A DNA stretch of 64,000 nt from Elusimicrobiota bacterium (lineage in GTDB: Bacteria; Elusimicrobiota; Elusimicrobia; UBA1565), in contig JBDRPD010000022.1 of assembly GCA_043827405.1 (NCBI GenBank), positions 1 through 64,000 of the forward strand, given 5' to 3'. Positions 750 to 50,739 of this stretch are shown piece after piece. The position numbers and the translations under genes are program-made. Position 1 is the stretch's first letter. Each line of letters starts with the position of its first letter. Under the pieces are notes generated by a model that did no database searches, was not told where the DNA came from, and saw only the letters and a program-made list of their open reading frames with translations.

Positions 750-758
750 GCTGCCGGC

Positions 759-32944: not shown

Positions 32945-34435
32945 ATGAAGAAGCCGTTCGGCAAGCGCGACATGCGCAGAAAACGCCGCCAGGACAAGGA
33001 ACGCAAGGGCGGCGCCATCCCCGGACCGGTCAGTACGGCCCCCTCTCAGGTCGGCGTCCGGCTGGCCCCAGCGGCCGGCGCGGCCTCCTCCGGCGGTTCT
33101 CAGCTATCGGCATGGAATACTTTTGCCGGTGCCTTTGCCCGCGCCACCGGGCTCAGCGGCCAATCCGCCACCGCCGCCCGCATGGCGCTGGTCGTCATCG
33201 CCGTGACCACCGGCGCCGTTTCCATCTACCTGAGCCGGCCGCGGCCGTCGGCGCCCCTGCGCCAAGGCCGGCACATCTTCGCCCCCAAGCCCGCATCCCC
33301 GTTCGACGCGCGCGTCGAATCGGAGCCCGCGCCGCTCACTCCCGCCCAACGGGTCGCGAGCGGCTCCTCACTGGACTACTTCGCGGACGCCAACCCCATC
33401 GATGCCGTCGCCGGAACCGCTCCCGCCGCGGCGGAAGAGGAAACCGGGGAGGCGCGGGAAGCGCCGGCGGCCGATGACGCCGCCGACAAAGAGCCCGCCG
33501 GCGACGCGCCGGCGGCGTCTAAGCCGCCCGCGGATAAGCCCCGTCTCATCGCCTCCAGCAAGATCGGCACCGGCGGCGGCCAGCTTACCTCCAATGTCGC
33601 GCTGAAGACCCTGCAGGACATGAAAAGCCATGGCGGGGACTTCGCGGAAATATACAAGAAACCCGGAGCGGCCTCCGGCGAAAAGGCTGGAAAACGCACC
33701 TTGCTTGCCGCCAGCCGAAGAACGGCCGGCGCCTCCGGCAGCAATGCCTACGGTCAGGCGAAGTTCGCCAATCGCATGAGCGGCCAGGCGGCGAAGTCCG
33801 CGGCATCCAACTCCGCGGCCGCCTACGCCTCACAGCCTTTCGACGGCGCCAATACGCTCGGCGGCAGCGGCGCCGCGACGGGCGAGGGCGCGGCGCTCGG
33901 CGGCGCCGGGGTCGAGACCGGCGCCAGCAGCATCAAGGACACCAAGGAGATCGAGGAGCCGCCCAAGCCCGAAGACGTGAAGACGCCGCAGAACCAAACG
34001 CCCTATCAGGGCATGCTGATCGCGGCCACCGCGGCGCTCATGATCGGCCTGCTGCTGCTCAAGCTCGCGGGCGAGCTCATCAATCAGGCCAAGGCCGATC
34101 CCACCGGGGTGGGCGCCGCGGCCAAGCTCGCCCAAGGCAAGATGCTGGCCATGGCCGCCATGGCGGCGGGCGGCGCGGCGGCCGGGCTCGGCGGCATGAT
34201 CGCCGGACAATTCGGCCAGCTGACGCAGGCGATACCCTTCATCCTCGGCGGCGGCGCGCTCGCGGCCGAGGCGGGTATGGTCATCATCAAGGCCGACCAG
34301 GCGGGAAAGGACGCCGGCGACAAGATTAACGACGGTGCCGGACAGGCCGGCGGCTTGACCAGCCAAGCGCTCTCGCCCGATAGGGCCAGCCAGAACAACC
34401 TTGAACCGGAAAGGAAGCTGAAGGGAAGCGGCTAG
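32945..34435 (+). CDS. Ala/Gly-rich membrane protein (496 aa): basic N-terminus, one TM, low-complexity linker, three C-terminal hydrophobic helices
   Basis: ATG 32945 after an AT-rich promoter-like stretch; stop overlaps the giant gene's stop. Confidence 0.75.
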   Translation: MKKPFGKRDMRRKRRQDKERKGGAIPGPVSTAPSQVGVRLAPAAGAASSGGSQLSAWNTFAGAFARATGLSGQSATAARMALVVIAVTTGAVSIYLSRPRPSAPLRQGRHIFAPKPASPFDARVESEPAPLTPAQRVASGSSLDYFADANPIDAVAGTAPAAAEEETGEAREAPAADDAADKEPAGDAPAASKPPADKPRLIASSKIGTGGGQLTSNVALKTLQDMKSHGGDFAEIYKKPGAASGEKAGKRTLLAASRRTAGASGSNAYGQAKFANRMSGQAAKSAASNSAAAYASQPFDGANTLGGSGAATGEGAALGGAGVETGASSIKDTKEIEEPPKPEDVKTPQNQTPYQGMLIAATAALMIGLLLLKLAGELINQAKADPTGVGAAAKLAQGKMLAMAAMAAGGAAAGLGGMIAGQFGQLTQAIPFILGGGALAAEAGMVIIKADQAGKDAGDKINDGAGQAGGLTSQALSPDRASQNNLEPERKLKGSG

Positions 34436-37400
34436 CTGAGCGCCGGAGCCGGCGGCGGCGGCGATGACTGCCGCATCCGGCGCCGCGTCAGCCACTCCCA
34501 TACCGCCGCCAGAATCGACAAGAGCAGCGAGCCGAAAAGCACCCACGGCCACCACTTGGTCGGGTCGCCGGGCCGGCTGGGATCGTTCCCCTCTTGCTCT
34601 TCGCGGCGGCGCTCGAGCTCAGCGAGATACTTGCGCAGGCGGCCCAGCTCGTCGCGGATCGCTCCGATCTCCTTGTCGAGCCCGGCGATGGCCCGCTCAA
34701 TCGCCCGCTGGCGGCCGACCTTCCAGGCGAGGTCCTGGATCTCGTCCCACAGCTTGCGCTCCTCGGCGCCCACCGCGCGGCGCCGGCCGATGCCGTCGCG
34801 CAGCTCCCGCTCCGCCGCGGCCAGGACCTGCTCAAGGCCGGCGCGGGAGCCGCGCTGGTTTCGCAGGTCGTCGCTCAGCCGGTCCGGCAGCGCGGAGAGC
34901 TCGGACTCGATCTTTCCGTACTGGCCGGCGCCCGGCCGGATCTGGACGTTTCGTTCAATGCGGTCGACCTCGATATGCCCCGGAATGCCGCCGATGCGCA
35001 CCCGGCCGCTGCCGTCCGAGTTCGGATGCGAGCCGATCATCGGATCATCGAGGGCGTCTTCCAGCGCGTCGCGGCCGTAGCTCTCCTTGACCCGCGAGGT
35101 GATGACGGAACGGTCCCGGCCGCGCCGCGTCTCGAGCCATACGTCCTCGAGCCCGCCCTCGAAGTAGGAGCGCACGCGCTTGCCGGCGTTGACCAGATCC
35201 TCGAGCTCATAGACCATGGTCCGCTCCACATATTTGCGCCCGTAGTGGATGTCCTTCTTGCCGGCGCGCGAATCCTTGTCGTAGATGTTCTCGCCCGGCT
35301 TGATGGGAGAATCGATGCCCACCTGCTGGGGGAACTGGCTGGCGTCGAAGTACCAGTCCACCGGGTCGGGCATCAGATCGAGGAAGTCGATGAAGCCCAC
35401 CGCGCGGCGGAAGAAGCCGTGATGGTTGGTGGCGCCGCCCTCGATCTTCTGCATATGGACGCGGCCCAGGTAGTTGTGCTGGTTCGGGTCGCGGCCGGTC
35501 AGCAGCTCCATCGGCGTGCCGAGCACGCCGCGCGGGATCTCCATGAGCAGGCTGCCCCAGTTCCACGGGCTGTAGGCCCAGCTTTCAACCCCCGCCTTCT
35601 CGCGCCCCGAATCGACGAGCCGCGAGATCATATAGCGGCGGTTGAGCATGACCGGAAGCTTGCTCTCCGGGTCGACGTAGTAGCGCAGGCGGTAGTTCGG
35701 ATCGACCGTCTTGCCGTCGCCGCGCTCGCGCACGATGCGGTCATGCGCCTGCTGCGGATCCTCATGGGAGAGGACGATCATTTGATCCGCCAGCGCCCAG
35801 TCCTCGCCCGCCTTCTCGACGGCTTCCGGGTCCAGGTAGATCTTGACCAAAGTCTGGTCGGTGTCCATCACCGCCGCGAATATCTCCCCCCGCACCGTCC
35901 GGGTCTTGCCCTGCGCGGCGCCGAGCCCGACGCTCAGCTCCTGTTCGCCGAAGACCGGCTTGGCGGCGACGCGAACCAGGGAATTGCGCTCATCGACCGT
36001 GATCGACGTATCGCGCGTGACGTAGAGGCGCCACTGCTGCACGCCCGAGAGCTTCTTCGCCTCGCCCGGAATCGACAGCTTGTCCGGCCGGACGGGATCG
36101 ATCTCTTCCGGAACGCCCGCCCGGCGCAGCGCTTCCAGATAGGCCTGGCCCTGCGCTTCCCACTGTCCGCCCCGCGCCATAAGCAGCCCCGTCTGCGTCA
36201 GATCCTCGAGCGCCTGGTCGAACTTCCGGTACTTGTCGCGGAAATCCTGATGCAGCTTATTGAACTTGTCGAGCTCTTTGGCATGCGCCTGCTGCGCGTC
36301 GATGAACCCGTCATCCTTAACGGTGCGGGCGTTGAGCTCGGCCTTAAAGCGCGAGGCGAAGTCTTCGGCCGGCTCGCCCGCCCGCCGCGTATAGCTCCCC
36401 CGCATCTCCCGCTCGATACGGTCGCGGACCGTCTTCTGCACCTGCTGGTACTGCGCATGCTCGGCGTCGAGCCGCTCCTTCTGCGCGTCCATTTTGCCGC
36501 GCGCGGCGTCCTCCGCGGACTTGGCCGCCTCGACTACCCCGCGCGTCTCGGCGAAGATGCGCACGGATTCCTGCAGCGACCGCACCGCCTCGTTGAAGTC
36601 ATCCTGCGTCAGATACATCGCGGCGGGCTCGGCGCCCTGCTCGACCGCGAAGCCGTAGCTCTGCAGCTTGACGCCCATCCAGCCCCGGCGCTGCGAGCGG
36701 ACCTTATGCTCGCGGGCGTACTCGATCATCTTCTCGACGCCCTTGGGGCCCGCCTCAAGGAAATGGAAATATTCGGCCTCACGCCGGTCCGCGGCGCTGT
36801 CCGACAGCCGCAGGCGCTTGACATGATCGTAGAGGCTCTCAATGGTGGGGAAGCGGTCGCGCGAGTAGCTTTCCCCGCCGGTATAGAGCACCGTCTCCGT
36901 GTTCGCCGGGTCCGACCACAGAGCCTTGAGCGGGTGCCGCGCGGGGTGCAGCTCGTAGCGCCCGCTGTCGCGCGTAAAGCTGAACATGGCTCCCTTGACG
37001 GCGACCGCGAGGGCTTCCTCGTAGCTGAAGGCCCGGACCCCAGCGCCGTCGAGCCGCACCAGCGCGAACTCGCTGGTCGCGAAAAGCTTATGCAGCTGCA
37101 GCCGTACCGTATTGCCGTCCAGGGCGCGGCGCGCGCTGCTGCTCTTGCCGAGCGCGGAGTCGACGCCGCCGATCACTTCCAGCCGCCGCTTGCCGTCGAG
37201 CAGCCACATGCGGCCGTCCGCATCCTTATGGATCTGCTTGGCTTCCAGCAGCCGGTTGACGTCTTCCTGGGTGAACCAGCCCTGTGTGGTCCACAGCCGC
37301 CGGTCGCCGACGACTTCGGTCACGGCGTAGAGCGGGGACAGCTCCCCGGGATCGCGCGCCAGCCAGCGTTCGCGTAGGCCCTGAAGATACCCGAGGACGT

Positions 37401-40400
37401 TGAGGACCTCATTGATGTCGCGGGCGGACGCATGCTCGTAGCGCAGCGCCTTCAGCCGCCCTTCCTCGAGCATGATCAGAGCCTCGAGGGCGGGCATCGC
37501 CCGTCCGAACCGCAGCTCGGACTTGGCGCGCTCGATCGACACGGTCGGCGGATACAGGCTCGCCAGGTAGCGGATCATGCTGCTGTCGCCCGCGACCGAC
37601 TCATGCTCATAGGTCTTGAGCACTTCCGCGTCGTAGGCCGCCTCGGCCTTCAGGTAGGTATCAAGAGCGATATCGCGCATAATGAAGTCGGCCGCGCCCC
37701 GCAGATTGAGCATATAGTCTTCCAGCAGCGTCTGCTTCGCGTCCAGGCGCGCGCGGTAGAGCTTCTCGAGGCGCATGACCGCGCCCTGCAGCGCAAAGGG
37801 AAGGTCCAGGCTGTCGGCGTAAGCCTCCCGCATGCTCATCAGCAGGCCGTCATTATGCGCAACGGCGCCGTCGGCCGCCGTGATCTGCCCTTCGATGTCC
37901 TGCATCAGGAAGTTGAGGAATTCGGTGCGCCCGGCCGGATCGACCGACAGCGCCGCGAAGATCCTGCCGAGGACCCCCTCCACCTGCAGGCGCCGTCCCT
38001 CGGCGTCGAGCTTGGTCAGGACTTCGAGCTTATGGGCGGCATCGATCTCGGGATGATAGCGCGCCGCTTCCGCCGCCTCGTGGATCATGCGGTACAGGGA
38101 GGACGCCGCGTCGAGGTCCCGGCGGGCCTCGGGCGCCAGGCTGCGCAAAGTGGCGAGCTTATCGAGCAGGCGCTGCGCGAAGCCCGCATCAAGCACCCGC
38201 CGCGAGGCGTAGGAGAGCATGCGCTCCTGCTCGGTCCGCCCCTTTTCCGCTCCGGCCAGTTCCAGCGCGCGCGCCGACGGGACGATCAGCTTCTGCGCCG
38301 GGAAGCCGATCGCCTCCAGCTCGGTGACCAGCTTGATAAAATCGTTCTTGAGCTCGGCCACGGTTTTCGAGAACTCCAGCAGCGCATCCACCAGCGCCTG
38401 CTGGGAGGAAGCCAGCTCAGCGGCGCCGGTCATGCCGCGCTCAAAACGGGCCAGCGAGGCCTGGAACTCATCGGCGGCGGCGAGGATCAGCCGGTGCTGC
38501 TTCTCCACGAGCTTTGACTTTTCGGCCACCGCGTTCATGAGCAGGTGCAGCTGCTGCGCCAGCTCCTGCATCCGCCCCTGCGACATAAGCTCCTTGCGCA
38601 GGGACTCGGACAGAACCTGCTCGAGGCCGCGCTCGATCGAGCGCGGGTCGGGCGCTTCCATGTAGAACGCGCCGACCGAGCGGGCGCGGAAGATGCCGAA
38701 GGCGGCCACCGGAGTGAAGCCGTTGTAGCTCATCCGCTCCGCGATCACATCCGCCCGGATCTGGTGGATCAGGCCGTCCTCGCTGCCCAGCGCCGCGGGG
38801 ATGCCGCCGTCGAAGAGCGTGCGCCGGATTTGATCGATATTGAGCGCCTCGACCTGGGAGATGAAGCGCGCAGCGATGCGGCCGAGGTCCCCCGAATCCC
38901 CGCCCTGGTCCGCCGGCACCAGCCGCGCGAGCTGCGCCGGCGTGACGTCGCGCGGCAGTCCGAGCAGCGCCTTGATGCGGTCGGCCTGGATGGCGAGGCG
39001 GTCGTTGATGTCGCTTCTGAACTGGTCCAGGTTGTCGGCCAGCTTCTCGGCGCGCGGGTCGCGGCGCATGGACTCGGCCCAGCGCTGCAGGCGGACATTG
39101 GTCTCGAACTCGGAGAGCAGTATCTGTCCCGAAGACCGCGCGGCGGCGTTCATATTGCGGTTGATGCGGGTCGCCTTGTCGACGCGCAGCTTGGCCAGCG
39201 CCAGCAGCACCTCGGCCGGCGTCTCCGGGTCCCGCAGGCGAACTTCCACCCAGGTGTCGATATAGTTCTCGCCTATCGGGTCACCGCCGAGGCTGGTCCG
39301 TGCCCGGTAGTAGCGCGCGTAGCCGGAGGATTTCTGCTCCAGCAGCTCCGGCGCGAATACTTCAATATCGGCCTCCCGCCCGGCGGAGGCCAGGTCCTGT
39401 TCGGCGTCCATGACGCGCGCGGTCAGATCGCGGTAGCTCGCCGGCAGCGTCCCGACCACCGCGTCTTCCGGCTCGGCGCCCAGCCGCGCCAGGTTCGCCT
39501 TGAGGACAAACAGCTTGTTATTCAGCTCGACCGCCCGCAGCCGCGACTCCGGGTCCGTTCGGCCGTTGAGCCGTGCCAGCGCCGATTCCGCGGACTTCAG
39601 CTCCGCCTGGACCTGCCGGTAGCTGACGGCGCGGGCGCGGTCGTAGGCGTCGCGCGCGCGCTCCGCATCGAGAGTCTGGATGCGCGCCGCCGCCACCCGC
39701 TCGGGGTTGCCGATCCCTTCGTCGGACAGGGCGCTGAGCAGGCGGCCGAGCGAACGCACAACGAGCGAGACCGGCTCGACGCGAACCTGCTGCAGCTTGA
39801 GGTCCTTGTCGACCATCTGCTCCACGGCGCGGGCGACTTCGACGCGGGAGTCGAGAATGGCCTTGTCCGCCGCCGCCGGTTCCTTCTTGGCGAGGATCGC
39901 CTTGAGGTCGGCGAGGGCCTTCTGGGGCGTAAGCTCCATGTCCAGGGGCGCGCCCTCGGGCCGCCCCATAAGATAGTTCAGCGTCATGAAGGACTGCTGG
40001 TAGATCTGCCGCGCCATGATCAAGCGCCGGGAAGCGATATCGAGCTCGCGCTGGAGCCGCGGCACGTTCCCTTCCGGATCGCCCTTGGCCGCGTCCCGCT
40101 GCGCCGCGGCCAGCTGCCGGCGCAGCTCGGGGATGATCTCTCCCTCAAGGATCTGCACCGACTGTCCGGCATGGTCGATGGCGACCACGTGCCGGTAGAT
40201 GTCGAGCGCGAGGTCCGCTTCGACCTTGGTCTTGAACTGGTTGAAGTACTTCTCCTCGCTGCGCCCCTGCGCCGTCTGCAGCTCGCGCAGCTCCTCCGGC
40301 TTGAGCTCGAAGGTCAAAATCGGCGTCACCGCCAGCCCGGTTACGCCGAACGAGGGCAGCCAGCCCACGCCGTCGGCCGTAAGGTTGTACCCGGCGAACA

Positions 40401-43400
40401 GGTCGATATAGAACCGCTTGATCCGGTGGTCGTTGGCCGCGGTCCGGTGCGCGGCCGCCTGCTCCCGCAGCCCGACCTCCTCCAGGCTCCGGGCGTTCTT
40501 GGAGACGACGTTGAAGGCGTCCTGGAAGCTGTCGACGAGAAGCGGGTCGCTGCCGCCGGTAGGCGCCCGGCCGAAGGAGCGGTCGAGCACGCTCCATCCC
40601 GCCGCCAGCATGCCCTTGGACTCCGACTCCAGAATTCCGGCCACGTACCAGTGCCACTGGTCAAACGCCTCGCGCATCCGCTTCTCGCCGATGAGGCCGT
40701 TGCGGTAGGCCTTGATCGCGGTGTCGAGAGCCAGCTGCGACTTGCGCGCGCCGGGAGCCAGATTGTCGGCGTCGGCGAACCAGGCCTCGGCGCGCTGGCG
40801 CTCCTTGGCCGCCCGCAGGCTGTACTCCTGCCACACTCCCTCAATCTCGCGCACCGTGGCTTGGGACTCCAGGATATACGCCTTGTCATGCTCTTTGGAA
40901 GCCGGGTCGTAGATCGGCAGGCGGATGGTCACGCCCAGGCCGAGGACCTGGTTGGCCATATAGTCATGGAACTGAGCGCCGAAAGAGAAGGTCAGCTTGT
41001 CGACCCACGGGATCCAGTCCACCAGGTTGAAGGGGTTGTCGCCGATCTCCTTGGCGATCTCCTCCTTGTCCAGCATGTGCAGGATCTTTACCATGCGGTC
41101 GGGCGTGGCGATAATCGACTTGATCTCGGAGAGCAGGCTCTGCACGTCCCCGGCGCTGAGATTATCGAACGGCAGCGCCGCTTTGGGATCGCGGCCGCTG
41201 AGCATGTTGTAGCGGATCGAGGCCTGCTGGAGCCGGAGCTCGGCCTCCGCCTCCAGCACCGCGCCCTCGCGCCGCAGCGCCTCGGTCGGAGCATGCTCCG
41301 CCATGGCATGCGCCATCTTCAGCTCCCACTGGGCCTGGGCGATATCGACCACGGTCTGCTGCCACTGCCGGGTCAGCTCCAGCATGCGGAACTGCAGCCG
41401 CAGGGACTCGCGGTAGAGATTCTGCACCTTGGCCTCGATAAGCGCCTTCTGCGTCTTGCTCAGCTCCATCGTGGTATGGGTCCCGGCCGCGAAGCCGCCG
41501 CCCACCACGCGGTCCGACAGGTCGTCGCCGATCGGGTTGGTTGTGAAGCCGACCATGCCGCGCACGCGGGTATTGTCGAGGAAGGCGCCGGCCTTGCGCA
41601 GCTCCTCGATCTCCTTGGTCAAATTGCCGATGTCCTGCTTGATGAGCTTGGTGCCGATATCGCGCAGGAACACCGAGCGCAGCTCCTTGACTTTTCCGGC
41701 GTCGGCCGCCTCATCCTTTAAGAAGCCGTCAAGCTCGCGGTTGTACTTCTTGAGCGCGCTGGACCCTTCCAGCGCGTCCGCGGTATTGCGCGTCACGGCC
41801 GACCACAGCTCGCCGAGCGTGAACGCCGAGTTCAGCCCGATGGTCAGCCGCGGCTCCTGTCCCACGTAGCGGGAGCCGTAGCTCAGCGAGATATTGGAAT
41901 GGTCTCCCGTCTTCTTCGCCAGCTCGAGGAAATAGGTCTTGGCGTCGCCGACCAGGCGCCCCTCGGCGTTGACTACGACGCCCCAGTTGGGAAGCGTTAC
42001 CGACACCCGGTCGGACAGCGTGCCGAAGCGCTCGCCCTTCTCGAAGCCGGCGCGGTTCTGGATGATCATCCAGGGCTTGCCCTTGTCGTCTTTGATGGTG
42101 AAGCCCTTGAGCACCGTGACGCCCACCGAATCCTGATTGTAGTCGTCGGTCCCTTCGACCCGCGCCCAGAACAGGTCGACGCTGAAGGTCTCTTCCGATT
42201 TCAGCAGCTTGGCCACGTTGAACTTGGGCCCGATCTGGGTCCGCTTGTAGTCCTTGTTCTCGCCGTTGGCCTCGATGACGAAATCCCGGTTGAGATCGGG
42301 GTCCAGACCGGTGAAGTCCAGGTTCATGGTCTGCAGGAAGTAGCGCGGGTCCTTGGCCGCGACGCGCTGCTGCTCGGCCGAGAGGCTCATCACCTCATGG
42401 AACTTCCACTCCGTCTTGATGCTGCCGCCGTAGTAGGAGGGCTTGTTCTTGGTGTCGCTGGTCGCGATGTCGGCGAAGCCCGCCAGGCCGATATAGAGCT
42501 TGCCGTCGAACAGCATCATCGCGAAGTCGTCGAACACCATCATCCGGCTCTGCTGCGCCTGGCTGGTCATCTGGGTGTCCGCCGGGATATTCTGGATGAA
42601 GCGGTGGAAGTCGATGTTCAGGTAGTTGACCCAGTTCTTGCCCTGCAGCGACTCGACCTGCACCTCGACGCCCTTGTCGCCCCACGGCGCGTTCTCGTCG
42701 TTGACCGGGCTGGCGAACTGATAGCCGGTCACGCTGATATTGTTGCCCCACAGCTTGGCGACGTTGCCTAGGGTCACCCAGTTCGAGGTCTCCAGGCCGT
42801 GCGGCACCGAGAACTGCGACTGGTAGACCAGGTAGAAGCCGTCGGCGTCGCCGAACTCGAGCATCTCGGTATTGGGGATAATGCTCGAGATCTGGCTGGG
42901 GTCCTCCAGCAGGCGCTTCTGCAGGCCCGCGAGGTTCACGCCCGATGAGGCGCGCTCGAGAAATCCGGTAAACAGCGTCTCCACGAAGGAGCCGAAGTCC
43001 TTTTTGGGCACCACCAGCGCCGCCGTCGCGCCCGAGGTATCGAGGCCCTCCATCATATACATCCCGCCGTTGATGCGCAGATCCTGGATGCGCTTGGCGA
43101 GCGCCGGGCTCAGGCCGCCCGGGTCGCGGAGCTCGCGCAGCTCGCGCGCCAGCGCCCGCTGAACCTTGTCCGCCCGCCGCAGCGAGTAGTCGAGACTGTC
43201 GTTGGCGCGCTCATAGCGCGCCTTGATGTCGTGGTACTGGAGGTTCTGCTCGAGCACGGCGCGGGTCTTGTCCTGCAGCTCGCGCAGGTTGTCGGCCACG
43301 CGCCGCAGGGCGCTCTCATGCGGATCATTGAGCTGCGACATCCAGCGGGTCAGCTTCACGCGCTGCTCCTCGAGGTCGTCGTAGGTCTCTTTCAAAGCGT

Positions 43401-46400
43401 CCTTGAACTTGAGGATCGCCTCTTCTTCGGAATCCGCCGCCGTGACGGCCTTGTCGTGAATCTTCTTCTGCGCCTCGTAGAAGTCCTTCACCCGCTTGAC
43501 GGTGTCGAGGCCCTCGGTATCCCAGCCCACCTTCTGGCCGTAGAAGCCGACCCCCGCCCGCGTCAGGGCGTTGAGCTGGCCGTAGATCGCCAGCTTGCGG
43601 TCGAAGACCTGGTCCGAAGTTTCGCTGGCGCCGTCGGCGCGGACATAGGCCTCGTCCTTCTGCAGATCGGCGATGGCGGTATTGAGGCCCGCCTGCGCCT
43701 GCTTGAGGAACACCTCGGCTACCGGGATGCGTTCGTAGAGGTTCTTGCTGGCGCCGTCGATGAAGCCGTCGGCGAACAGGAACTCGGCGACGGCATAGGC
43801 GGCGGAGCCGTCGTCGACGTTATTGACCTGATTGGTGGACGGCACCAGGCGCTTGGCGGCCTCCAGCGCCATCAGGGCGATGGTGGTGTTGTTATCCAGG
43901 GTGGGATCCGGCTGCTTGCCCTCGGGAACGCCTTCCCTATCGCCCATGTCGAGCACCGGATCGCCCTTGTTCTTGTACTCGTTGCCGATATCGGTCAGCA
44001 GGTCGCCCAGGGTGTAGTAGATGCCGTCGTCGACCAGCCGCTGCACGGCGTCGACGCTGGCCTGGCCATCGGCCGCGATATTGGTCGGCAGCCGGTACTG
44101 CGACAGCTTGACCTCCCCGTTGGTCAGGCGCTCGATGCGGTCGAAGATGTCGTTGATCTCGGCATGCTTGGCGTTGATCTGCTGGGAGCGCTTGACCTTC
44201 TCGGCCTGGTTCTGGGCGATGGCTTTGGGCAGGCTGTAGGGCTGAACGCGGCCGTAAATCTCCTCGCTGTCGTTGTTGTTGGGATCCTTGCGGCGCTCCA
44301 GGTCGGAGAGCAGCTCATTGACGCCGTCATGGTGGCCGTCCGCATTATCATAGCCGTTGAGCAGCTCCAGGAAGCGCTCGCGCTGCTTCTGGATCTTGGC
44401 CATGCCGTCGGCGGCGTCGCCTTCCTTGGCACCGTTGGAGGCCAAGGACCAGGGCACCGTACGCTCCAGCGTCTCCTTGGTTCCCTCGTACAGATCGATC
44501 TGGCTCTGGAACAGCTTGGCATAGGTATCGCCGTTCGGGTCGAAACTCTCTATCGAATCATTCTGGAACGGAATCGCATGTCCGGTAATCATCCCCTTGG
44601 CTTCAAGCAGGATCGGCCGCACCTTCTCCAGCAGCGCCTTCTTGCGGTCAATGAGCCCCTGTTTGTCCGGGAAGCCCGCCTTAACGTCGGCGATATCTTT
44701 ATCGATGTCGGCGATGAGCTCCTGAATGACGCTGACGCCCTGGTCGTAGACCGAGACCGCCTGCGGGACCGGCGACCGCAGGGCATCCTGGATCGGCTCG
44801 ACCTGCGCGTCGGCCTTGGCCCACAGGACCACCGAACGCGCCGCCTGCGGCAGCAGCTGCGCGATCTTGAGCAGGCTCATCTTGGCTTCCGCGATTTCGT
44901 TGGAAGTGTCGCTGGGGAAGCTTAAGGTCTTGAGCTGGTCTTTGTAAGCCTGAACCGCGTCCTTGAGCTGCTCCAGGGACATCCCGGAGAGCGCCGGCAG
45001 AGCGGCTCCGGGAACGTACTGATTAATATAGGCGGCTTCGCGATCCATCCTGGTGAGCAGGCCGCGGGCATCGGCGCTGTGCTTGGCGATGTCCGACTCC
45101 GCCTGCGCCAGCCGCTTGGGCAGCGACAGCGGATAGAAGTCGCCGAAATCATCGGTATCAAGGCCGGAGTAGGTCGCACTCTGGCGATTGCGGAACTCGT
45201 CGCGGGTCTCTTTGTAGTCTTCCAGCTCGGCGAGCCAATGCGCCTTGCGGTCGGCCAAAATCTGCAGCGTCTGCGCCTCTGAGGGGTTGTTGACGCTCAC
45301 GTCCGGCACCCCGGGAACCGCGATCACCAGGACGCCGGCGAACTCAACCGGGACGTCGCGGATCTTGTCGAGCCCCTCATCGACGGAGTCGACGTAGCCC
45401 TGCACGTCCGCCAGCTTCGAGTTGAGCTCCTTGAGCGACAGGAAATCCTCGTCGCCGGGCTTGCCGTCGGTGTACCACTTCACCAGCTCCGGCAGCAGGG
45501 CCTTGCGCCGCTGATACTCGGCGAGCGCATTCGGGCTCTGTCCCGCGTCCTCCGCGTCGATGCGCCCCAGCAGCGCCTTGGCTTCGGTGCGGAAGGCGCC
45601 GATATTCTCCACCGCCGAGCGGGTCTGCGACTCGAGCTCCTCCATATCCGTCTTCGACCGCGCAGAATCCGCGATCTTGCCTTCCGCGTCCCGCTCCCAT
45701 TCCTCGTTGCGGCCGTCATTGGTCTCGGCGTCGCGCAAATCCCGCTCCGCCTGCTCCCGCGTCTGCCGGATCTTCTGCAGCTTGGCGTCGAGCATCTGCT
45801 CCATCTGCTTGATGGCGGCCTGGGCGGCGGCGACCTCGTTGAGAGACAGCGCCAGGTCCATCACGGTGGCCAGCTTGGCCAGGTTCTTGTGAAACTCGAG
45901 CATCTCCTTGCCGCCCCGCCGGTCGCGCAAGGCGGTGTCGCGCGAGCGGTTGATCACGGCGAAGAGCTTGGCCAAGGCGTCCCGGTTGACCAGATCGCCC
46001 TTAACCTCGCCGCGCAGGTCCTCGAGCTCGGAAACCATCGACTCCAGCCGCTTCTCGGTTACCTGGTCCACGCTCTTGACCGCGCCCAGGTCCGGCCGCC
46101 GCCTGCTGGTGCCGTCGCGGTAGCGCTCCACCGCGCCGGCGAGGCTCTCCAGCACCGCCTTGCGCAGACCCAGCGAGTCGCTGTAGCCCAGGCTTTGGTT
46201 CACCTCGGTGCCGAGGAGGGAAGCGTAGTAGGCCTGCAGCTCGGTCAGCTTCGCGATGCGCTGGGCCTCATACTCTTTGCGGCTGGCGGGATCGTCGGCG
46301 GGATTCTGCAGGTCGAAAATCTCGGCGAGCTTGCCCTGAACATAGTCCTCGTCGCGCTTGCTCTCCAGCTTCTCGAGCGCCGCGCGGTACTCGGCCTCCT

Positions 46401-49400
46401 GCTTGGCCGCTTCCGCGGGCGACAAGCTCATCTCTTTAAGCTGATCCCGCTCCTGCGTCTTCTGCAGCAGGGTCGCCTCCAGCTCGGCGATGCGCTGCTT
46501 GACCCGCGTGATCTCGCGCTCAAGGTCCCCCGCCTCGTCCTGCGCCTGCAGCTTGCGCGCTTCCATCTCCTTGCGCGCGCCGAGGACGAAGCCCTCGGGG
46601 CCGCCGCCGCCGCGCGACGCCATGCCCACGATGCTCGCGACCACCGACTGGCCCGCCGCCATCGGCCCGAGCGGCGTGCTGTTGCCGGCCATGGCCACCT
46701 CGATGGCGCTTCCGGGCTCGAGGCCGTGCACGCCGTACACCCCGTGGCGCACGACGTTATACACCGCGTCCGTGATATTGAAGCCCGCCAGATCCTGCAG
46801 CTTGTAGATCAGGATATTGCCCCAGGTGATCGCCCCGCCGAAGGGGATCGGGCTGTCGCCCTCGGGGCGCTCGACCGCCGCGCCGATGGTATGGAACAGC
46901 CGGAACTCGGACCCGGTCAGCGGCTGGTAGGCGGTGTTGAAGAAGCCGTCGATCTCCCCGGCATAGCTCATGACGCCCTCGATCTCGGCGCCGACCACCA
47001 TCAGGCCGAACATCGACTTGAGATTCTTGGACCAGAACGACCAGCTGATCGCGGTCCCCGCCACGCCCAGTATGAAGTCCGCGCTGAGCAGCGGCGGGAG
47101 CCGGTGCGCCATGCCGCGCTGGTCCATCAAGCGCTGCTTGGCGACGGCGGGGAAGGTCAGCAGGGTGGAGAGCGCGAAGGTATTGAGCAGCGCCCCGACC
47201 GACAGGTCCGAGATCACCGCATTGAGCGCGCTGCCGGTCACCGCGGCCAGGCTCTCACCGACGAACGGCACCGCGGAGAGGAACAGCGGCAAGCCGTGGC
47301 CGAAGGCCACCAAGGCGTCGCCCAGGAAGGGCACCGCCGTGAGGTGAAACGACAGCACCGGCAGCGGCGTTAGCCCGGCGATCAGGCCCATGGCGACGGC
47401 GCTGAAAATCGCCAGCGTCGCCCGGCGCCAAACGAACTGGACCAGCGGGCCGAAGACCGGGGTGAGGAAGTAGCGGCGCAGCAGCCGGGCGCCGCGGCCG
47501 GCGTAGATATTCTCCTTCAGGCCGACGCCGCGGCGCTGGTGCTTGGCCATCGCGCCCTTGATCCATTTCTCGGCCGTCGGCAGCCGCATCTCCTCGGTCT
47601 CGGTCAGCTCGCCCTTCTCCTCCGCCTGCTTGCGGGCGATCTGGGCGCGCAAAGTGATGAAGTCCTCGGTCGAGCGCGAGAACTCGTAGGTGATGTTGCG
47701 GCGGAAGAAGCCGAAGAAGAACATGTCGAAGAGCTGGTACGGGAATCGGACGAATATCCCGATGAGATGCTTGTGCATCTCCAGCGCCCGGACCAACGCT
47801 CCGCTCAGCCCCTTGGGGTACTGCCGGTTGGCCAGCTTGCGGTAGCCCGCCTCCGCGACTTTCTTGCGCCAGCCGAGCTTGACGAAGAGGCGGCTGACCG
47901 TTTCACTCAAGAGGCCGCCCTCGTACTTCTTCGAATCCAGCTGCTTGAACTCCTCGCGGTTCATCCGCTGCAGCTCGTCGTAGACCGCCAGCCAGGCCGC
48001 GCGGTCGCTGGTCATCGATAGGCCGTAATCCTCAGCCATCGCCATGAGCTCGGCATGGGGGATATTGAACTGCCGGGCGATATAGCTGATGATCTGGGGG
48101 GCGTCGGCGCTGTCCGAGAGGCGGGAAATGTGGGGATCGTGCTTGATTCCGCGTACGCTTCTAAAACCGAACAAGCCCTCGTGGATGTGAGGACTGTTTT
48201 CCTTGGGGTTTGGTGTTTTCGGCGAAGTCTCCTCGGAAGGAGGCTTCGCTATATCCCCCGGCGGAGCACGCGCCTCGTCGCCGGGCTTTTCCTTGCTCGG
48301 CGGCGGCGTCTCCTTGGGCGGCGCGGGGAGCTTGGTCCCCGGCTGGTCCTTGCTCTTGCCCGGCGCGTCGTCGCGCAGCACAGCGGCGACCTTGCGGATG
48401 CGGCCGCGGGCGTCGATAAAGGTGTAAATCGGGTCCTGCTTCCATCTGGAAATGATCTCGACGCGCACCGGCTTAAACCAGTGGGAATCCTGCTTAAGCG
48501 CCGTATAGGCATCCTCGATGGAGCGGATGCTTGCCAGACGGCTGTTCCAGAGCGTCTGCTTCGTACGCAGCGGCGACTTGCCCTGCGGCTTCACCACGAT
48601 GCGCTTGGAGTATACCGTGAGAATTTTCTTTTTCTTGGGAGAGTGGAAGATGAATATCCAGCGCGAGCTGGGGTTGTTTAGATTGATGGCCACGCGCACC
48701 AGCCGCGCGTCCTTGGCGATACGCCGGGCCCGAATCTGGGCCTTGGCTTTGGCTTGCGCCAGCGTCTCGGCCTTCATCGACCGGGCATCAGCCGGCAGGC
48801 TGCGGAAGCTGCGCGGGCTCGCGCCGGCCAGGCCGCTGGGATTGGCGCCTTTGCGCGCCACAGGCTCCTGCTTCCTGACCGGAGCCTTTTTCTCAACCGG
48901 CGCGGCCTTTTTAGCCGGCACTGGCTCTTCAACCGGCGCCGTCTCTTCAACAGGTGCGGGCTCGGCGACGACCTGATCGTCTTCGACGGCTTCCTCGGCG
49001 CTGCTCGCCGCCGCCCCTTCCATTTCCTCCAGCGCCAGCCTATCGGCCTCTTTCTTCGCCTTCGCCCAGCGGCCGCGAAGCCAGCCTTCAACGACAAATC
49101 CGATCGCGCTGCCGGCCAAGGGGAGCGCCAGCGCCGCCGTCAGCGGCGCGCCGAAGACGGCGAAAGCCAGATATGCCGCCGCGGTGCCCGCGGCCACGCC
49201 GTAAAGCGAGCCGACGCTGATCTCGGTCTCCTGCATCACCTTGCCGTTGAGCAGGCGATCACCGACGACCCAGCTGATCAGCGGCACGAACAGCGCGGCG
49301 GTCGGATAAACCAGCGCCGCGGCAAAAGCCAAAGCCGTTCCCAGCATGGTCCCGTATATCGCGGCCTTCGACATGTGGAAAGGAGACGGCTCGGGCTCGA

Positions 49401-50739
49401 CGGTCGGGGCTGCCGGCGCGGCCGACGCGTCAAAAGCCAGCGGCGCAATAGCCTCTTCCGCGTCCATCGCCGCATTTTCCGCCGCCTCGGCGGCGGCGTC
49501 TTCCTGAGCCCCGACAGCCTCCTCCGCCTCTTTGGCCGCCTGCTCTTCAGCCTTGGCCTCGGCCGTCTCGGCGCCGTTGATATTCGGCACCAGGTACAGG
49601 ACTCCCGTATCATCGGTCGTCACGGTATAGGCGCCGTCGTTTACGCCCTGGAGGATCTCCGCCTCGGCGTCCACCTCGTGGAAGGAGGTGGTCATGAAAT
49701 TGAAGATATTGAGCTTCTGCTTGGCCTGCGCCGCGCGCGCCACCGCGACCAGCGCCGCGTCCTTCTCCAGCGTGACCGGATGCCTCTCGGTCAGCGCCTC
49801 CTGCTTCTCCTTCTCTTCTTTCTGCTTCGCCTTGCGCTTCTTCCACCACTTCTTGCCGAAGTGCATGGTGAGGCCGAGCGCCAGCTGAATGCCGATCATG
49901 GCCGGCCAGGACAAGCCGCTGAAGATATTGATCGCGGAGAAGACCTCGGTAACCGTGCTCCAGGCTCCGGACAGGCTGAATTCTCCCAAGGACAGCGCGC
50001 CGAGGCCCATAACCGCGGCGCCGCCGAACAAGGCGGTCATGCCTTTTTTGCTTTGCTGCGGCTGGGCCGCGGGAACCATGGTTTTTGCGGCCCGGCCGGA
50101 GATGCTGCCCGCCGGCCGCAGGCCGGAGCGCAGCGGGGCGGCGCCGGAATTCGGCGCCATCTCTACCGCGTCCGCCTCCGAAATTCCGTTCTCCATTCCC
50201 CGCAGGGCGTCGAAGCTCTTGGCGCCCCAGCTCTTGGAAGTGGAGGCCGAGCCGAGAGTTTCCTTGGACGGGCTCAGGTAGCGCGATTCTTTGGACTCCG
50301 CATCCTTCTTGCCGCGGATGCCGTCAACCAGGATATTGAACAGGCCGCGGGGCGTCTTCTTTCCCGCCTTTTCCGCGCTTTCCACGCGCTTGAGAATGGA
50401 GGTGCTGGCGACGCCCTTAACGTCCTTGACGCGAACCTCTTTGGCCGCCTCGAGAGAGGGAGTGACGCCGACCGCGGGATTGCCGACCGCGGGCAGCACG
50501 GCGGTGAGATTGGCGTTGACGGCCGGAGTCAGGCTTCCCAGCGCCGTGTTGACGTTCCGGATCGCCTGGACCGGGATCCCGGCGGTGCCCGTCGCGGAAC
50601 CATTGGCGGCGGCCCGGGGAACGACGATCTTGGCGGCGAGAGCCTCGTAGACGGGAAGGCCGGGAGCGGTCAGAATCAGCGAACTGCAGACCGCGATCGC
50701 GACCGCTTTTTTCGCCCGGCGAGTGCCTCTTGCTTCCAC
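34432..50739 (-). CDS. Giant (~5,435 aa) envelope protein: signal peptide, TM clusters, PepSY-like pair, helical stalk, beta-barrel-like block, six TolC-like half-repeats, C-terminal TM
   Basis: 16.3-kb open frame; GTG 50739 preceded by TG-T-TACTCT-N6; OEP-like motifs GVTIRLPIYD, AYRNG, RFERG, LNYLMGRP, ALLGLP. Confidence 0.9.
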   Translation of the reverse strand: MEARGTRRAKKAVAIAVCSSLILTAPGLPVYEALAAKIVVPRAAANGSATGTAGIPVQAIRNVNTALGSLTPAVNANLTAVLPAVGNPAVGVTPSLEAAKEVRVKDVKGVASTSILKRVESAEKAGKKTPRGLFNILVDGIRGKKDAESKESRYLSPSKETLGSASTSKSWGAKSFDALRGMENGISEADAVEMAPNSGAAPLRSGLRPAGSISGRAAKTMVPAAQPQQSKKGMTALFGGAAVMGLGALSLGEFSLSGAWSTVTEVFSAINIFSGLSWPAMIGIQLALGLTMHFGKKWWKKRKAKQKEEKEKQEALTERHPVTLEKDAALVAVARAAQAKQKLNIFNFMTTSFHEVDAEAEILQGVNDGAYTVTTDDTGVLYLVPNINGAETAEAKAEEQAAKEAEEAVGAQEDAAAEAAENAAMDAEEAIAPLAFDASAAPAAPTVEPEPSPFHMSKAAIYGTMLGTALAFAAALVYPTAALFVPLISWVVGDRLLNGKVMQETEISVGSLYGVAAGTAAAYLAFAVFGAPLTAALALPLAGSAIGFVVEGWLRGRWAKAKKEADRLALEEMEGAAASSAEEAVEDDQVVAEPAPVEETAPVEEPVPAKKAAPVEKKAPVRKQEPVARKGANPSGLAGASPRSFRSLPADARSMKAETLAQAKAKAQIRARRIAKDARLVRVAINLNNPSSRWIFIFHSPKKKKILTVYSKRIVVKPQGKSPLRTKQTLWNSRLASIRSIEDAYTALKQDSHWFKPVRVEIISRWKQDPIYTFIDARGRIRKVAAVLRDDAPGKSKDQPGTKLPAPPKETPPPSKEKPGDEARAPPGDIAKPPSEETSPKTPNPKENSPHIHEGLFGFRSVRGIKHDPHISRLSDSADAPQIISYIARQFNIPHAELMAMAEDYGLSMTSDRAAWLAVYDELQRMNREEFKQLDSKKYEGGLLSETVSRLFVKLGWRKKVAEAGYRKLANRQYPKGLSGALVRALEMHKHLIGIFVRFPYQLFDMFFFGFFRRNITYEFSRSTEDFITLRAQIARKQAEEKGELTETEEMRLPTAEKWIKGAMAKHQRRGVGLKENIYAGRGARLLRRYFLTPVFGPLVQFVWRRATLAIFSAVAMGLIAGLTPLPVLSFHLTAVPFLGDALVAFGHGLPLFLSAVPFVGESLAAVTGSALNAVISDLSVGALLNTFALSTLLTFPAVAKQRLMDQRGMAHRLPPLLSADFILGVAGTAISWSFWSKNLKSMFGLMVVGAEIEGVMSYAGEIDGFFNTAYQPLTGSEFRLFHTIGAAVERPEGDSPIPFGGAITWGNILIYKLQDLAGFNITDAVYNVVRHGVYGVHGLEPGSAIEVAMAGNSTPLGPMAAGQSVVASIVGMASRGGGGPEGFVLGARKEMEARKLQAQDEAGDLEREITRVKQRIAELEATLLQKTQERDQLKEMSLSPAEAAKQEAEYRAALEKLESKRDEDYVQGKLAEIFDLQNPADDPASRKEYEAQRIAKLTELQAYYASLLGTEVNQSLGYSDSLGLRKAVLESLAGAVERYRDGTSRRRPDLGAVKSVDQVTEKRLESMVSELEDLRGEVKGDLVNRDALAKLFAVINRSRDTALRDRRGGKEMLEFHKNLAKLATVMDLALSLNEVAAAQAAIKQMEQMLDAKLQKIRQTREQAERDLRDAETNDGRNEEWERDAEGKIADSARSKTDMEELESQTRSAVENIGAFRTEAKALLGRIDAEDAGQSPNALAEYQRRKALLPELVKWYTDGKPGDEDFLSLKELNSKLADVQGYVDSVDEGLDKIRDVPVEFAGVLVIAVPGVPDVSVNNPSEAQTLQILADRKAHWLAELEDYKETRDEFRNRQSATYSGLDTDDFGDFYPLSLPKRLAQAESDIAKHSADARGLLTRMDREAAYINQYVPGAALPALSGMSLEQLKDAVQAYKDQLKTLSFPSDTSNEIAEAKMSLLKIAQLLPQAARSVVLWAKADAQVEPIQDALRSPVPQAVSVYDQGVSVIQELIADIDKDIADVKAGFPDKQGLIDRKKALLEKVRPILLEAKGMITGHAIPFQNDSIESFDPNGDTYAKLFQSQIDLYEGTKETLERTVPWSLASNGAKEGDAADGMAKIQKQRERFLELLNGYDNADGHHDGVNELLSDLERRKDPNNNDSEEIYGRVQPYSLPKAIAQNQAEKVKRSQQINAKHAEINDIFDRIERLTNGEVKLSQYRLPTNIAADGQASVDAVQRLVDDGIYYTLGDLLTDIGNEYKNKGDPVLDMGDREGVPEGKQPDPTLDNNTTIALMALEAAKRLVPSTNQVNNVDDGSAAYAVAEFLFADGFIDGASKNLYERIPVAEVFLKQAQAGLNTAIADLQKDEAYVRADGASETSDQVFDRKLAIYGQLNALTRAGVGFYGQKVGWDTEGLDTVKRVKDFYEAQKKIHDKAVTAADSEEEAILKFKDALKETYDDLEEQRVKLTRWMSQLNDPHESALRRVADNLRELQDKTRAVLEQNLQYHDIKARYERANDSLDYSLRRADKVQRALARELRELRDPGGLSPALAKRIQDLRINGGMYMMEGLDTSGATAALVVPKKDFGSFVETLFTGFLERASSGVNLAGLQKRLLEDPSQISSIIPNTEMLEFGDADGFYLVYQSQFSVPHGLETSNWVTLGNVAKLWGNNISVTGYQFASPVNDENAPWGDKGVEVQVESLQGKNWVNYLNIDFHRFIQNIPADTQMTSQAQQSRMMVFDDFAMMLFDGKLYIGLAGFADIATSDTKNKPSYYGGSIKTEWKFHEVMSLSAEQQRVAAKDPRYFLQTMNLDFTGLDPDLNRDFVIEANGENKDYKRTQIGPKFNVAKLLKSEETFSVDLFWARVEGTDDYNQDSVGVTVLKGFTIKDDKGKPWMIIQNRAGFEKGERFGTLSDRVSVTLPNWGVVVNAEGRLVGDAKTYFLELAKKTGDHSNISLSYGSRYVGQEPRLTIGLNSAFTLGELWSAVTRNTADALEGSSALKKYNRELDGFLKDEAADAGKVKELRSVFLRDIGTKLIKQDIGNLTKEIEELRKAGAFLDNTRVRGMVGFTTNPIGDDLSDRVVGGGFAAGTHTTMELSKTQKALIEAKVQNLYRESLRLQFRMLELTRQWQQTVVDIAQAQWELKMAHAMAEHAPTEALRREGAVLEAEAELRLQQASIRYNMLSGRDPKAALPFDNLSAGDVQSLLSEIKSIIATPDRMVKILHMLDKEEIAKEIGDNPFNLVDWIPWVDKLTFSFGAQFHDYMANQVLGLGVTIRLPIYDPASKEHDKAYILESQATVREIEGVWQEYSLRAAKERQRAEAWFADADNLAPGARKSQLALDTAIKAYRNGLIGEKRMREAFDQWHWYVAGILESESKGMLAAGWSVLDRSFGRAPTGGSDPLLVDSFQDAFNVVSKNARSLEEVGLREQAAAHRTAANDHRIKRFYIDLFAGYNLTADGVGWLPSFGVTGLAVTPILTFELKPEELRELQTAQGRSEEKYFNQFKTKVEADLALDIYRHVVAIDHAGQSVQILEGEIIPELRRQLAAAQRDAAKGDPEGNVPRLQRELDIASRRLIMARQIYQQSFMTLNYLMGRPEGAPLDMELTPQKALADLKAILAKKEPAAADKAILDSRVEVARAVEQMVDKDLKLQQVRVEPVSLVVRSLGRLLSALSDEGIGNPERVAAARIQTLDAERARDAYDRARAVSYRQVQAELKSAESALARLNGRTDPESRLRAVELNNKLFVLKANLARLGAEPEDAVVGTLPASYRDLTARVMDAEQDLASAGREADIEVFAPELLEQKSSGYARYYRARTSLGGDPIGENYIDTWVEVRLRDPETPAEVLLALAKLRVDKATRINRNMNAAARSSGQILLSEFETNVRLQRWAESMRRDPRAEKLADNLDQFRSDINDRLAIQADRIKALLGLPRDVTPAQLARLVPADQGGDSGDLGRIAARFISQVEALNIDQIRRTLFDGGIPAALGSEDGLIHQIRADVIAERMSYNGFTPVAAFGIFRARSVGAFYMEAPDPRSIERGLEQVLSESLRKELMSQGRMQELAQQLHLLMNAVAEKSKLVEKQHRLILAAADEFQASLARFERGMTGAAELASSQQALVDALLEFSKTVAELKNDFIKLVTELEAIGFPAQKLIVPSARALELAGAEKGRTEQERMLSYASRRVLDAGFAQRLLDKLATLRSLAPEARRDLDAASSLYRMIHEAAEAARYHPEIDAAHKLEVLTKLDAEGRRLQVEGVLGRIFAALSVDPAGRTEFLNFLMQDIEGQITAADGAVAHNDGLLMSMREAYADSLDLPFALQGAVMRLEKLYRARLDAKQTLLEDYMLNLRGAADFIMRDIALDTYLKAEAAYDAEVLKTYEHESVAGDSSMIRYLASLYPPTVSIERAKSELRFGRAMPALEALIMLEEGRLKALRYEHASARDINEVLNVLGYLQGLRERWLARDPGELSPLYAVTEVVGDRRLWTTQGWFTQEDVNRLLEAKQIHKDADGRMWLLDGKRRLEVIGGVDSALGKSSSARRALDGNTVRLQLHKLFATSEFALVRLDGAGVRAFSYEEALAVAVKGAMFSFTRDSGRYELHPARHPLKALWSDPANTETVLYTGGESYSRDRFPTIESLYDHVKRLRLSDSAADRREAEYFHFLEAGPKGVEKMIEYAREHKVRSQRRGWMGVKLQSYGFAVEQGAEPAAMYLTQDDFNEAVRSLQESVRIFAETRGVVEAAKSAEDAARGKMDAQKERLDAEHAQYQQVQKTVRDRIEREMRGSYTRRAGEPAEDFASRFKAELNARTVKDDGFIDAQQAHAKELDKFNKLHQDFRDKYRKFDQALEDLTQTGLLMARGGQWEAQGQAYLEALRRAGVPEEIDPVRPDKLSIPGEAKKLSGVQQWRLYVTRDTSITVDERNSLVRVAAKPVFGEQELSVGLGAAQGKTRTVRGEIFAAVMDTDQTLVKIYLDPEAVEKAGEDWALADQMIVLSHEDPQQAHDRIVRERGDGKTVDPNYRLRYYVDPESKLPVMLNRRYMISRLVDSGREKAGVESWAYSPWNWGSLLMEIPRGVLGTPMELLTGRDPNQHNYLGRVHMQKIEGGATNHHGFFRRAVGFIDFLDLMPDPVDWYFDASQFPQQVGIDSPIKPGENIYDKDSRAGKKDIHYGRKYVERTMVYELEDLVNAGKRVRSYFEGGLEDVWLETRRGRDRSVITSRVKESYGRDALEDALDDPMIGSHPNSDGSGRVRIGGIPGHIEVDRIERNVQIRPGAGQYGKIESELSALPDRLSDDLRNQRGSRAGLEQVLAAAERELRDGIGRRRAVGAEERKLWDEIQDLAWKVGRQRAIERAIAGLDKEIGAIRDELGRLRKYLAELERRREEQEGNDPSRPGDPTKWWPWVLFGSLLLSILAAVWEWLTRRRMRQSSPPPPAPALS

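Follow-up and report, generated by a model that had tools for sequence, protein, structure and literature searches.

A predicted single-chain, pseudo-trimeric TolC-like module within a giant Elusimicrobiota protein

The giant gene and the layout of its module

The window analysed here is a stretch of 64,000 nucleotides from an Elusimicrobiota bacterium (NCBI GenBank assembly GCA_043827405.1, contig JBDRPD010000022.1, positions 1 to 64,000 of the forward strand). Its minus strand contains a giant open reading frame (ORF) that encodes 5,455 amino acids (aa) from a TTG start; the database form of the protein, P0002, has 5,435 aa and begins at a GTG located 60 nt (20 codons) downstream of the TTG. 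When all 5,455 residues were scanned in four pieces, no Pfam or NCBIfam family was found above its cut-off. The subject of this analysis is an internal domain, aa 3030-4169, which is probably a natural single-chain, asymmetric, pseudo-trimeric duct of the TolC type carried by a giant envelope protein. The region aa 3030-4180, window positions 38260-41712, is numbered 1-1151 below; the protein number is the region number plus 3029. The coordinates of all features are collected in Table 1.

The plus strand also has long ORFs, of 564-1,058 aa, antisense to the giant gene at 34594-37377, 38545-41721 and 43231-44925. The G+C content is about 65%. ORFs of this length are expected by chance at such a G+C content, and the conservation tracks the minus-strand frame; the plus-strand ORFs (for example 38545..41721, 1,058 aa) were therefore rejected as genes.

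The module can be described as three tandem pseudo-protomers of two units each, P1 (units 1 and 2, region 1-385), P2 (units 3 and 4, 386-745) and P3 (units 5 and 6, 746-1140). This is the natural parse because the linkers YNMLSGRDP (aa 3197-3205, 41185-41211), LNYLMGRP (aa 3607-3614, 39958-39981) and IKALLGLP (aa 3942-3949, 38953-38976) each follow the second helix of an odd-numbered unit. The linkers between the pseudo-protomers are short, about 379-395 and 744-759 in region numbering. An earlier reading of the DNA, made from the sequence only, had quoted these motifs together with GVTIRLPIYD (aa 3289-3298), AIKAYRNGLIG (aa 3361-3371), SLARFERGMTGAAELASSQQAL (aa 4115-4136) and SFQDAFNVVSKNARSL at the start of unit 3, and all of them are present in the ORF translation where it had placed them. 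The same reading had proposed six units of a hairpin and two long helices at aa 3035-4170, which is 38290-41700 in window positions. DSSP, applied to the AlphaFold2 (AF2) model of the region, reproduced six serial units, in each of which a beta-hairpin leads into a long helix and then a shorter one, save for the hairpin of unit 4. This unit had been singled out as the weakest, and so it is in the model: the segment KLQQVRVEPVSLVVRSLGRL appears as one short strand, 641-645, with a predicted local distance difference test score (pLDDT) of 34-50, in a stretch where values fall below 50. The hairpin of unit 6 sits in the near-invariant MSYKGFTPVAAFG...EAPDP.

Table 1. Coordinates of the TolC-like module, its units and other features of the locus
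Feature	Window position	Strand	Residues	Description
TolC-like module	38293..41712	(-)	aa 3030-4169	AF2, Foldseek, VIA, hhalign against the genome's own OEPs, ESM Atlas
Unit 1	41158..41712	(-)	region 1-185	helix 2-40, hairpin 48-57/73-85, helices 89-140 and 144-171, linker YNMLSGRDP
Unit 2	40558..41157	(-)	region 186-385	short equatorial helices, hairpin 239-245/257-268 with GVTIRLPIYDP, 66-residue helix 272-337, helix 343-378
Unit 3	39937..40557	(-)	region 386-592	helix 396-427, long hairpin 431-447/454-470, 68-residue helix 473-540, helix 549-581, linker LNYLMGRP
Unit 4	39478..39936	(-)	region 593-745	helix 596-635, conserved KLQQVRVEPVSLVVRSLGRL, helices 670-715 and 721-743
Unit 5	38908..39477	(-)	region 746-935	helix 760-775, hairpin 795-806/812-825, helices 833-883 and 886-917, linker IKALLGLP
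Unit 6	38293..38907	(-)	region 936-1140	helices 943-966 and 981-993, hairpin 1000-1008/1011-1020, helices 1047-1091 and 1097-1134
Giant ORF	34432..50799	(-)	5,455 aa	TTG start; the TolC-like module is an internal domain
Porin-like beta-barrel domain	41818..42855	(-)	aa ~2649-2994	directly N-terminal to unit 1; AF2, VIA, Foldseek
N-terminal hydrophobic segment	50650..50706	(-)	aa 32-50	after RRAKK; signal-peptide-like or anchor; Kyte-Doolittle
Hydrophobic helix cluster	47143..47409	(-)	aa 1131-1219	Kyte-Doolittle
C-terminal transmembrane helix	34486..34542	(-)	aa 5420-5438	followed by the basic tail TRRRMRQ...
Y1/HTH gene	50879..51868	(-)	329 aa	Y1/IS200-like (REP-tyrosine-transposase-like) plus DnaA C-terminal helix-turn-helix (HTH)
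Second giant ORF	51959-61015	(-)	3,018 aa	borderline ResIII match, 22.6 bits against a cut-off of 22.5

Probable kinship with outer-membrane factors and the predicted barrel

The AF2 input was a 51-row alignment of translated locus references, fragments and three divergent giant proteins. The resulting model of 1,151 residues has a mean pLDDT of 76.1 (65.3-76.1 over the five models) and a predicted template modelling score (pTM) of 0.75. Block means of the helices range from 85 to 97, and the helices of unit 3 reach 87-97.

Foldseek comparison of this model with the PDB gave 31 matches at E <= 1e-3, the best with an E of 7.6e-6. All rows listed to rank 37 (E 7.5e-3) are outer-membrane factors (OMFs), namely TolC, ST50, OprM, OprN, OprJ-type, CusC, SilC, VceC and CmeC, and MtrE follows at rank 40; on fold the TolC likeness of the sequence-only reading is thus upheld by every listed row down to that E value, each being a TolC/OprM/CusC/VceC/MtrE/CmeC-type chain. 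The target-normalised template modelling (TM) score is 0.57-0.60 over about 380-400 columns, which is approximately one third of the model. Realignment of the Foldseek candidates with VIA-align gave OMFs in all of rows 1-29 (Z 10.3-14.9), for example OprN 5iuy_C over model 393..745 (Z 14.9, 270 aligned residues, root-mean-square deviation (rmsd) 3.9 A) and TolC 7ng8_A over model 96..590 (Z 12.9, 345 aligned residues, rmsd 5.6 A). The alignments fall in two registers, model 393..746 and model about 96..590. An OMF protomer can thus be fitted to units 3+4 or to units 2+3, so that neighbouring units bear the same relation to each other as the half-repeats of TolC. A VIA search independent of Foldseek, over 48,161 representative chains, placed OMFs at ranks 1-5 with Z 12.3-14.7. 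The protomer fold, with four strands, long antiparallel helices, two repeats and an equatorial domain, is recognised in P1 and P2; for P3 it is assigned from secondary structure and hhalign.

Profile-profile comparison points in the same direction. A reference profile was built from the eight canonical OEP genes of the genome, and hhalign found three in-register matches between it and the module, all to the OEP linker and second repeat and one in each pseudo-protomer: region 143-352 (60%, P 8.8e-5), region 546-595 (51%) and region 902-1134 against OEP 203-426 (12%). Compared singly with the second OEP repeat, unit 2 gave 72% (P 3.3e-5), unit 6 25% and unit 3 15%. When the family alignment was cut into 27 windows of 400 aa, the six windows from the module scored 32.2-48.3 (P 1.8e-5 to 3e-3) and the 21 similarly helix-rich control windows 11.6-23.6 (P >= 0.044). 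The OEP similarity is consequently confined to the module region, and what it suggests is a weak homology. By ESM Atlas features the nearest named clusters among those listed carry OEP or TolC names, at scores of 0.96-0.97, and the top-ranked family set accounts for 15 of the 30 matches.

The sequence-only reading had further predicted closure into a barrel, and by structural alignment the model does close. In the independent VIA search, small monomeric outer-membrane barrels align over model 44..1028 with Z 8.5-11.0, 137-181 residues and rmsd 3.5-4.5 A. They are Tsx (1TLW; Z 11.0, 171 aligned, rmsd 4.0), OMPLA (1FW2; Z 9.2, 181 aligned), NanC (2WJR; Z 8.8, 151 aligned), KdgM (4PR7; Z 8.6, 137 aligned) and VhGalP (Z 8.5, 146 aligned), all of which we take to be 12-stranded. 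These alignments span the first to the last hairpin and are longer than the strand content of the six hairpin regions, 126 residues by DSSP; in the model, all six units would thus contribute their hairpins to one closed barrel, of a size like that of these proteins.

The contact between non-adjacent parts of the ring was also predicted with P1 and P3 as separate chains, each with its own alignment. The median ipSAE was 0.45 (0.63, 0.42 and 0.45) against 0.00 for the best control, with a contact agreement of at least 48% between runs and a partner pLDDT of at least 58. Among the calibration pairs, 116 of 157 solved complexes but also 2 of 215 mismatches came up to the mark, and values <= 0.60 count as a weak pass. 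The result lends weak support to a P1-P3 contact; it may echo the solved TolC trimers, and it does not indicate which side of P1 would be bound by P3. Along the hairpin strands of units 1, 2 and 3 and along strands 4a and 5b, hydrophobic and polar columns alternate throughout the family. The alternation includes the unmodelled unit 4 segment LKLQQVRVE, and only a weak form of it is seen along strands 5a and 6a.

The rest of the chain, its neighbours and its family

The domain directly upstream of unit 1 belongs to the most conserved parts of the family and resembles a porin. Its AF2 model is poor overall (pLDDT 57.8, pTM 0.39), with block means of 72-91 at model residues 261-390, and only the C-terminal half of the model was used. 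In a wide VIA search, model residues 177-405 matched KdgM (Z 13.2), NanC (12.6), the beta-domain of BrkA (11.9), FapF (11.1), Hbp (11.0) and Omp33 (11.0). Foldseek also lists porins for this domain, at TM 0.2-0.3, and these rows were not relied on.

Apart from the hydrophobic segments in Table 1, Kyte-Doolittle plots indicate hydrophobic helices at aa 253-271, 479-508 and 532-574. A basic tail comes after the C-terminal helix. The positive-inside rule would put this tail in the cytoplasm and the approximately 4,200 residues before it outside, with the cluster at aa 1131-1219 as the presumed last membrane segment ahead of that part. Two tandem modules of outer-membrane type, in a chain that has membrane helices at either end, suggest an envelope-spanning protein. 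Two further parts of the chain are conserved. Residues 860-1420 (46540-48222, minus strand) form a membrane domain with several hydrophobic helices and conserved motifs, for which Pfam gave no match and the ESM Atlas no neighbour of use. The last ~1,280 residues of the chain (aa ~4170-5455; 34435-38290, minus strand) hold strongly conserved non-helical motifs with the family consensus ...NWGN..LEIPRG...TGRDP...YLGR...EGG.TEH.GFFR... and had no family match in the Pfam and NCBIfam scans.

Directly upstream of the giant gene lies the Y1/HTH gene, whose match to the REP-tyrosine-transposase model reaches 64 bits, below the cut-off of 80. The gene was found by tblastn at the same place in 16 related loci (47-71% identity, 12 matches listed). 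It is thus a conserved partner rather than a passing insertion sequence, and it looks domesticated, not like a mobile element. The second giant ORF is situated upstream of the Y1/HTH gene. Its C-terminal 420 aa are 43% identical to a counterpart at the same place in locus L026, the one locus with a flank long enough to show it; nothing was found for it in NCBIfam or the PDB, and no functional claim is drawn. The genes downstream of the giant gene are not conserved across the related loci. Farther off in the window are ordinary genes: at 7803-9566 (plus strand) and 20946-24417 a T2SSE/PilB-type ATPase, an ORF of glucodextranase-like/GH57 type and a LysM-FecR ORF that carries a glucodextranase domain B, as well as histidine kinases (3449-5557 and 24278-26467) and an MBOAT acyltransferase (29706-31163).

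The module is found as part of a family of giant proteins. Of the 1,144 candidates scored in a word-indexed search with the module region, 64 proteins had E <= 0.001. The matches are 3,044-5,940 aa long and 35-58% identical over 51-100% of the region, and the named ones are annotated as 'hypothetical protein' from Elusimicrobia. The whole region is conserved in colinear order in 63 other giant proteins, in the same range of identity, and at 47 loci in genomes; this conservation, like the OEP similarity restricted to the region, goes beyond a chance pattern. When 1.84 billion representatives were searched exhaustively with phmmer, 83 proteins came up. Those with strong scores are again the giants, and the short ones are single, fragment-like stretches at 28-66% identity from a library that carries no names. 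A scan of the GTDB species genomes confirmed 47 loci among 177 pattern matches, all from metagenome-assembled genomes that are labelled Elusimicrobia or unlabelled.

Among 401 sampled Elusimicrobiota genomes the module is present in 51, nearly all of one order. By family the counts are 8/9 (f1), 1/2 (f2) and 40/48 (f3), with one additional genome in f11, whereas 118, 47 and 89 genomes searched from three further families of the phylum did not show it. In that order 49 of the 59 genomes searched contain the giant family, often in two copies. The genome studied here has a second copy at G000:C99:25962-36788 (minus strand), an open frame of 4,031 aa. It matches aa 1468-4736 at 38% identity and lacks a part that would correspond to the N-terminal ~1,460 residues of the giant protein. 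Two copies of the giant gene occur in several related genomes as well.

A probable single-chain duct and the explanations that compete with it

The explanation that best fits these results is that aa 3030-4169 are three tandem, strongly diverged protomers of the TolC/OprM type, made of six half-repeats. The prediction would have these copies packed together like the three subunits of TolC: the six hairpins would make up a single small beta-barrel with about 12 strands, and a helical tunnel in the periplasm would be built from the long helices. If the three copies close into one ring, a single chain makes the whole channel, which is then necessarily asymmetric. The module would be inserted in the outer membrane, because a porin-like barrel precedes it in the same chain, because a signal-like segment and membrane-helix clusters stand at the start of the chain, and because the C-terminal membrane helix with its basic tail puts about 4,200 residues outside the cytoplasm. 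The duct may serve as the built-in outer-membrane exit, or as the anchor, of an envelope-spanning assembly made of one polypeptide, in which the flanking helical regions would replace a separate adaptor. An open pore and its coupling to the rest of the chain are presumed in this scheme. Since the module fails the curated OEP hidden Markov model (HMM) and is not a homotrimer, it is not filed as an ordinary OEP member; it is most probably a divergent, triplicated OEP derivative that would work like one, with an outer-membrane barrel and a helical tunnel below it.

A number of results weigh against this explanation. The scans with Pfam OEP and the NCBIfam models gave no match at E <= 1 in the giant protein, aa 2901-4300 included. 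A six-frame search of the genome with PF02321, a model that an OEP protomer normally matches twice, gave 15 matches in the eight canonical OEP genes elsewhere and none in the giant ORF. Searches of the PDB sequences with phmmer and with a 41-row family profile returned no OMF, only chance rows at E 0.03-3. The 83 proteins from the exhaustive phmmer search all appear to be the giant family itself. The hhalign probabilities against OEP are only 10-78%. The OEP similarity put forward by the sequence-only reading thus holds in profile-profile comparison and in language-model features, and fails with the curated HMM, where the scan of the module was negative. Between the units, only two of 15 pairs exceed 3% in hhalign, units 1 and 3 (66%, over a 33-residue tail) and units 2 and 4 (8%), compared with 98.5% for the two repeats of a real OEP. 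The proposed six-unit repeat is accordingly evident in the model and weak as a signal between unit sequences; if the units are repeats, the faintness of this signal suggests that the triplication is old and that the copies have specialised.

Other adverse points come from the structural comparison and from the genome. P3 alone retrieved no OMF row in the structure lists, only generic helical bundles at Z about 8. The pLDDT blocks of the hairpins are 34-75 at units 3 (turn), 4, 5 and 6, which makes the barrel parts the least confident ones, and the training of AF2 included TolC. DSSP counts 11 strands, not 12, with no modelled hairpin in unit 4; of the asymmetric pseudo-trimeric alpha/beta barrel predicted from the sequence, the OMF-like fold and the closure stand in the model while the strand count falls one short. 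The barrel matches at Z 8-11 are rated 'middling' by VIA's own notes. No adaptor (HlyD), RND, ABC or MFS gene was found among the window ORFs that were scanned.

The missing pump and adaptor genes would suit a module that descends from TolC and is no longer an outer-membrane pore, acting instead as a rigid helical strut or tether within a giant protein of the envelope or the surface, its hairpins forming a cap or a tip that binds proteins. The unmodelled hairpin of unit 4 and the weak alternation of strands 5a and 6a would agree with this, as would the remainder of the protein, which is largely helical and of unknown function. It is nevertheless unlikely, since the alternation typical of membrane strands is kept in most strands, a porin-like barrel domain lies immediately upstream and the barrel is closed in the model. 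Somewhat less likely still is that the pseudo-protomers are real and do not close on themselves, each of them instead forming a trimer with the same one of two other giant chains, or taking part in a domain swap, so that three chains give three symmetric channels. According to an excerpt of PMC8277102 all characterised OMFs are homotrimers, which speaks for such an arrangement together with the low confidence of the hairpin regions and the weak support from the P1-P3 prediction. On the other hand, the single chain has a pTM of 0.75 and its six hairpins jointly superimpose on small monomeric barrels; the linkers between the pseudo-protomers are short; and the pseudo-protomers are mutually unrecognisable while each is colinearly conserved, as fixed, non-equivalent positions in a ring would give.

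Very improbable is that the module has no kinship with TolC and is a helix-rich repeat protein with conserved beta segments, pulled into the shape of TolC by the predictor, with profile matches that reflect coiled-coil composition. In its favour, the curated HMMs and all searches of PDB sequences are negative, and the notes of VIA warn that helical models reach Z about 13-14 by chance. The rest of the family, however, is equally helical and gives no OEP signal in the 21 control windows, whereas the module has three independent in-register matches on the OEP linker and second repeat, ESM features that indicate OEP, and OMF rows that align 270-348 residues including strands and stand above all unrelated rows. 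In addition, GVTIRLPIYDP lies at a strand-to-helix turn covered by the alignment that hhalign makes between unit 2 and the second OEP repeat, and presumably resembles the equivalent OEP turn.

With a single-chain duct as the preferred explanation, the module can be set beside known systems. Like TolC, OprM, OprN and CusC (PF02321; 1EK9, 7NG8, 5IUY, 3PIK, 1YC9), it has in the model two half-repeats per protomer, each with a hairpin, a long down-helix and a shorter up-helix, an equatorial linker and long helices of about 66-68 residues. In the excerpt of PMC8277102, OMFs are presented as trimers with a duplication inside each protomer. The OMFs are homotrimers of chains of about 450 aa with a signal peptide or lipobox of their own, whereas the module would have three protomers in one chain and, being internal to a protein of 5,455 aa, has no such signal of its own. 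Its copies P1-P3 are mutually unrecognisable in sequence, unlike the identical subunits of an OMF, and it differs from canonical OEPs in scoring below the Pfam model and in having one hairpin, that of unit 4, unmodelled. Genes for OMFs are frequently, although not obligatorily, placed beside adaptor and transporter genes, and the giant gene is without such neighbours. In Tsx, OMPLA, NanC and KdgM the strands form a contiguous meander, whereas the six hairpins of the module are separated by 100-200 residues of helix; the upstream domain (aa ~2649-2994) is also like KdgM and NanC. An OEP domain joined to other domains in one chain is found in P0135 (1,454 aa; MMPL + OEP + ACR_tran) too, there as one OEP unit fused to an RND-type transporter and not as a triplicated OEP. 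P0135 was the single match when the longer relatives of one canonical OEP of the genome were searched for triplicated OEPs; none were found, and a search of this kind is weak evidence. Neither the family nor a single-chain TolC is described in the full-text literature searched (including parts of 10.1101/2023.11.21.568195, PMC11573180 and PMC8277102), a scope outside which the subscription journals lie.

More tentatively, and with the odds rather against it, the entire protein of 5,455 aa may be a trans-envelope machine encoded by one gene. Anchored in the inner membrane at each end, it would comprise a helical shaft of ~1,200 residues in the periplasm, the porin-like barrel and the single-chain TolC duct, and would work with no separate adaptor or pump. 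If so, a channel of three-fold symmetry would have been hard-wired as a pseudo-trimer with its three positions specialised. Given the conserved neighbouring gene for an HUH-type Y1 nuclease with an HTH, and the second giant ORF with its borderline ResIII match, the cargo may be a macromolecule, for example nucleic acid.

Ducts of the TolC type are the classic case of a channel made of three identical subunits, and their gating and adaptor docking are explained through this symmetry. If the module is a natural single-chain TolC, with copies that have diverged beyond recognition in sequence, the symmetry would be dispensable, and the family would offer a ready-made system for the contribution of each position, which so far has been approachable only with engineered, covalently linked constructs. 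It would also pose the puzzle of how the barrel-assembly machinery inserts an internal barrel of six hairpins in the middle of a chain of ~5,400 residues whose two ends are held in the inner membrane. For one part of a conserved giant protein without a known family, a first structural role would thereby be assigned.

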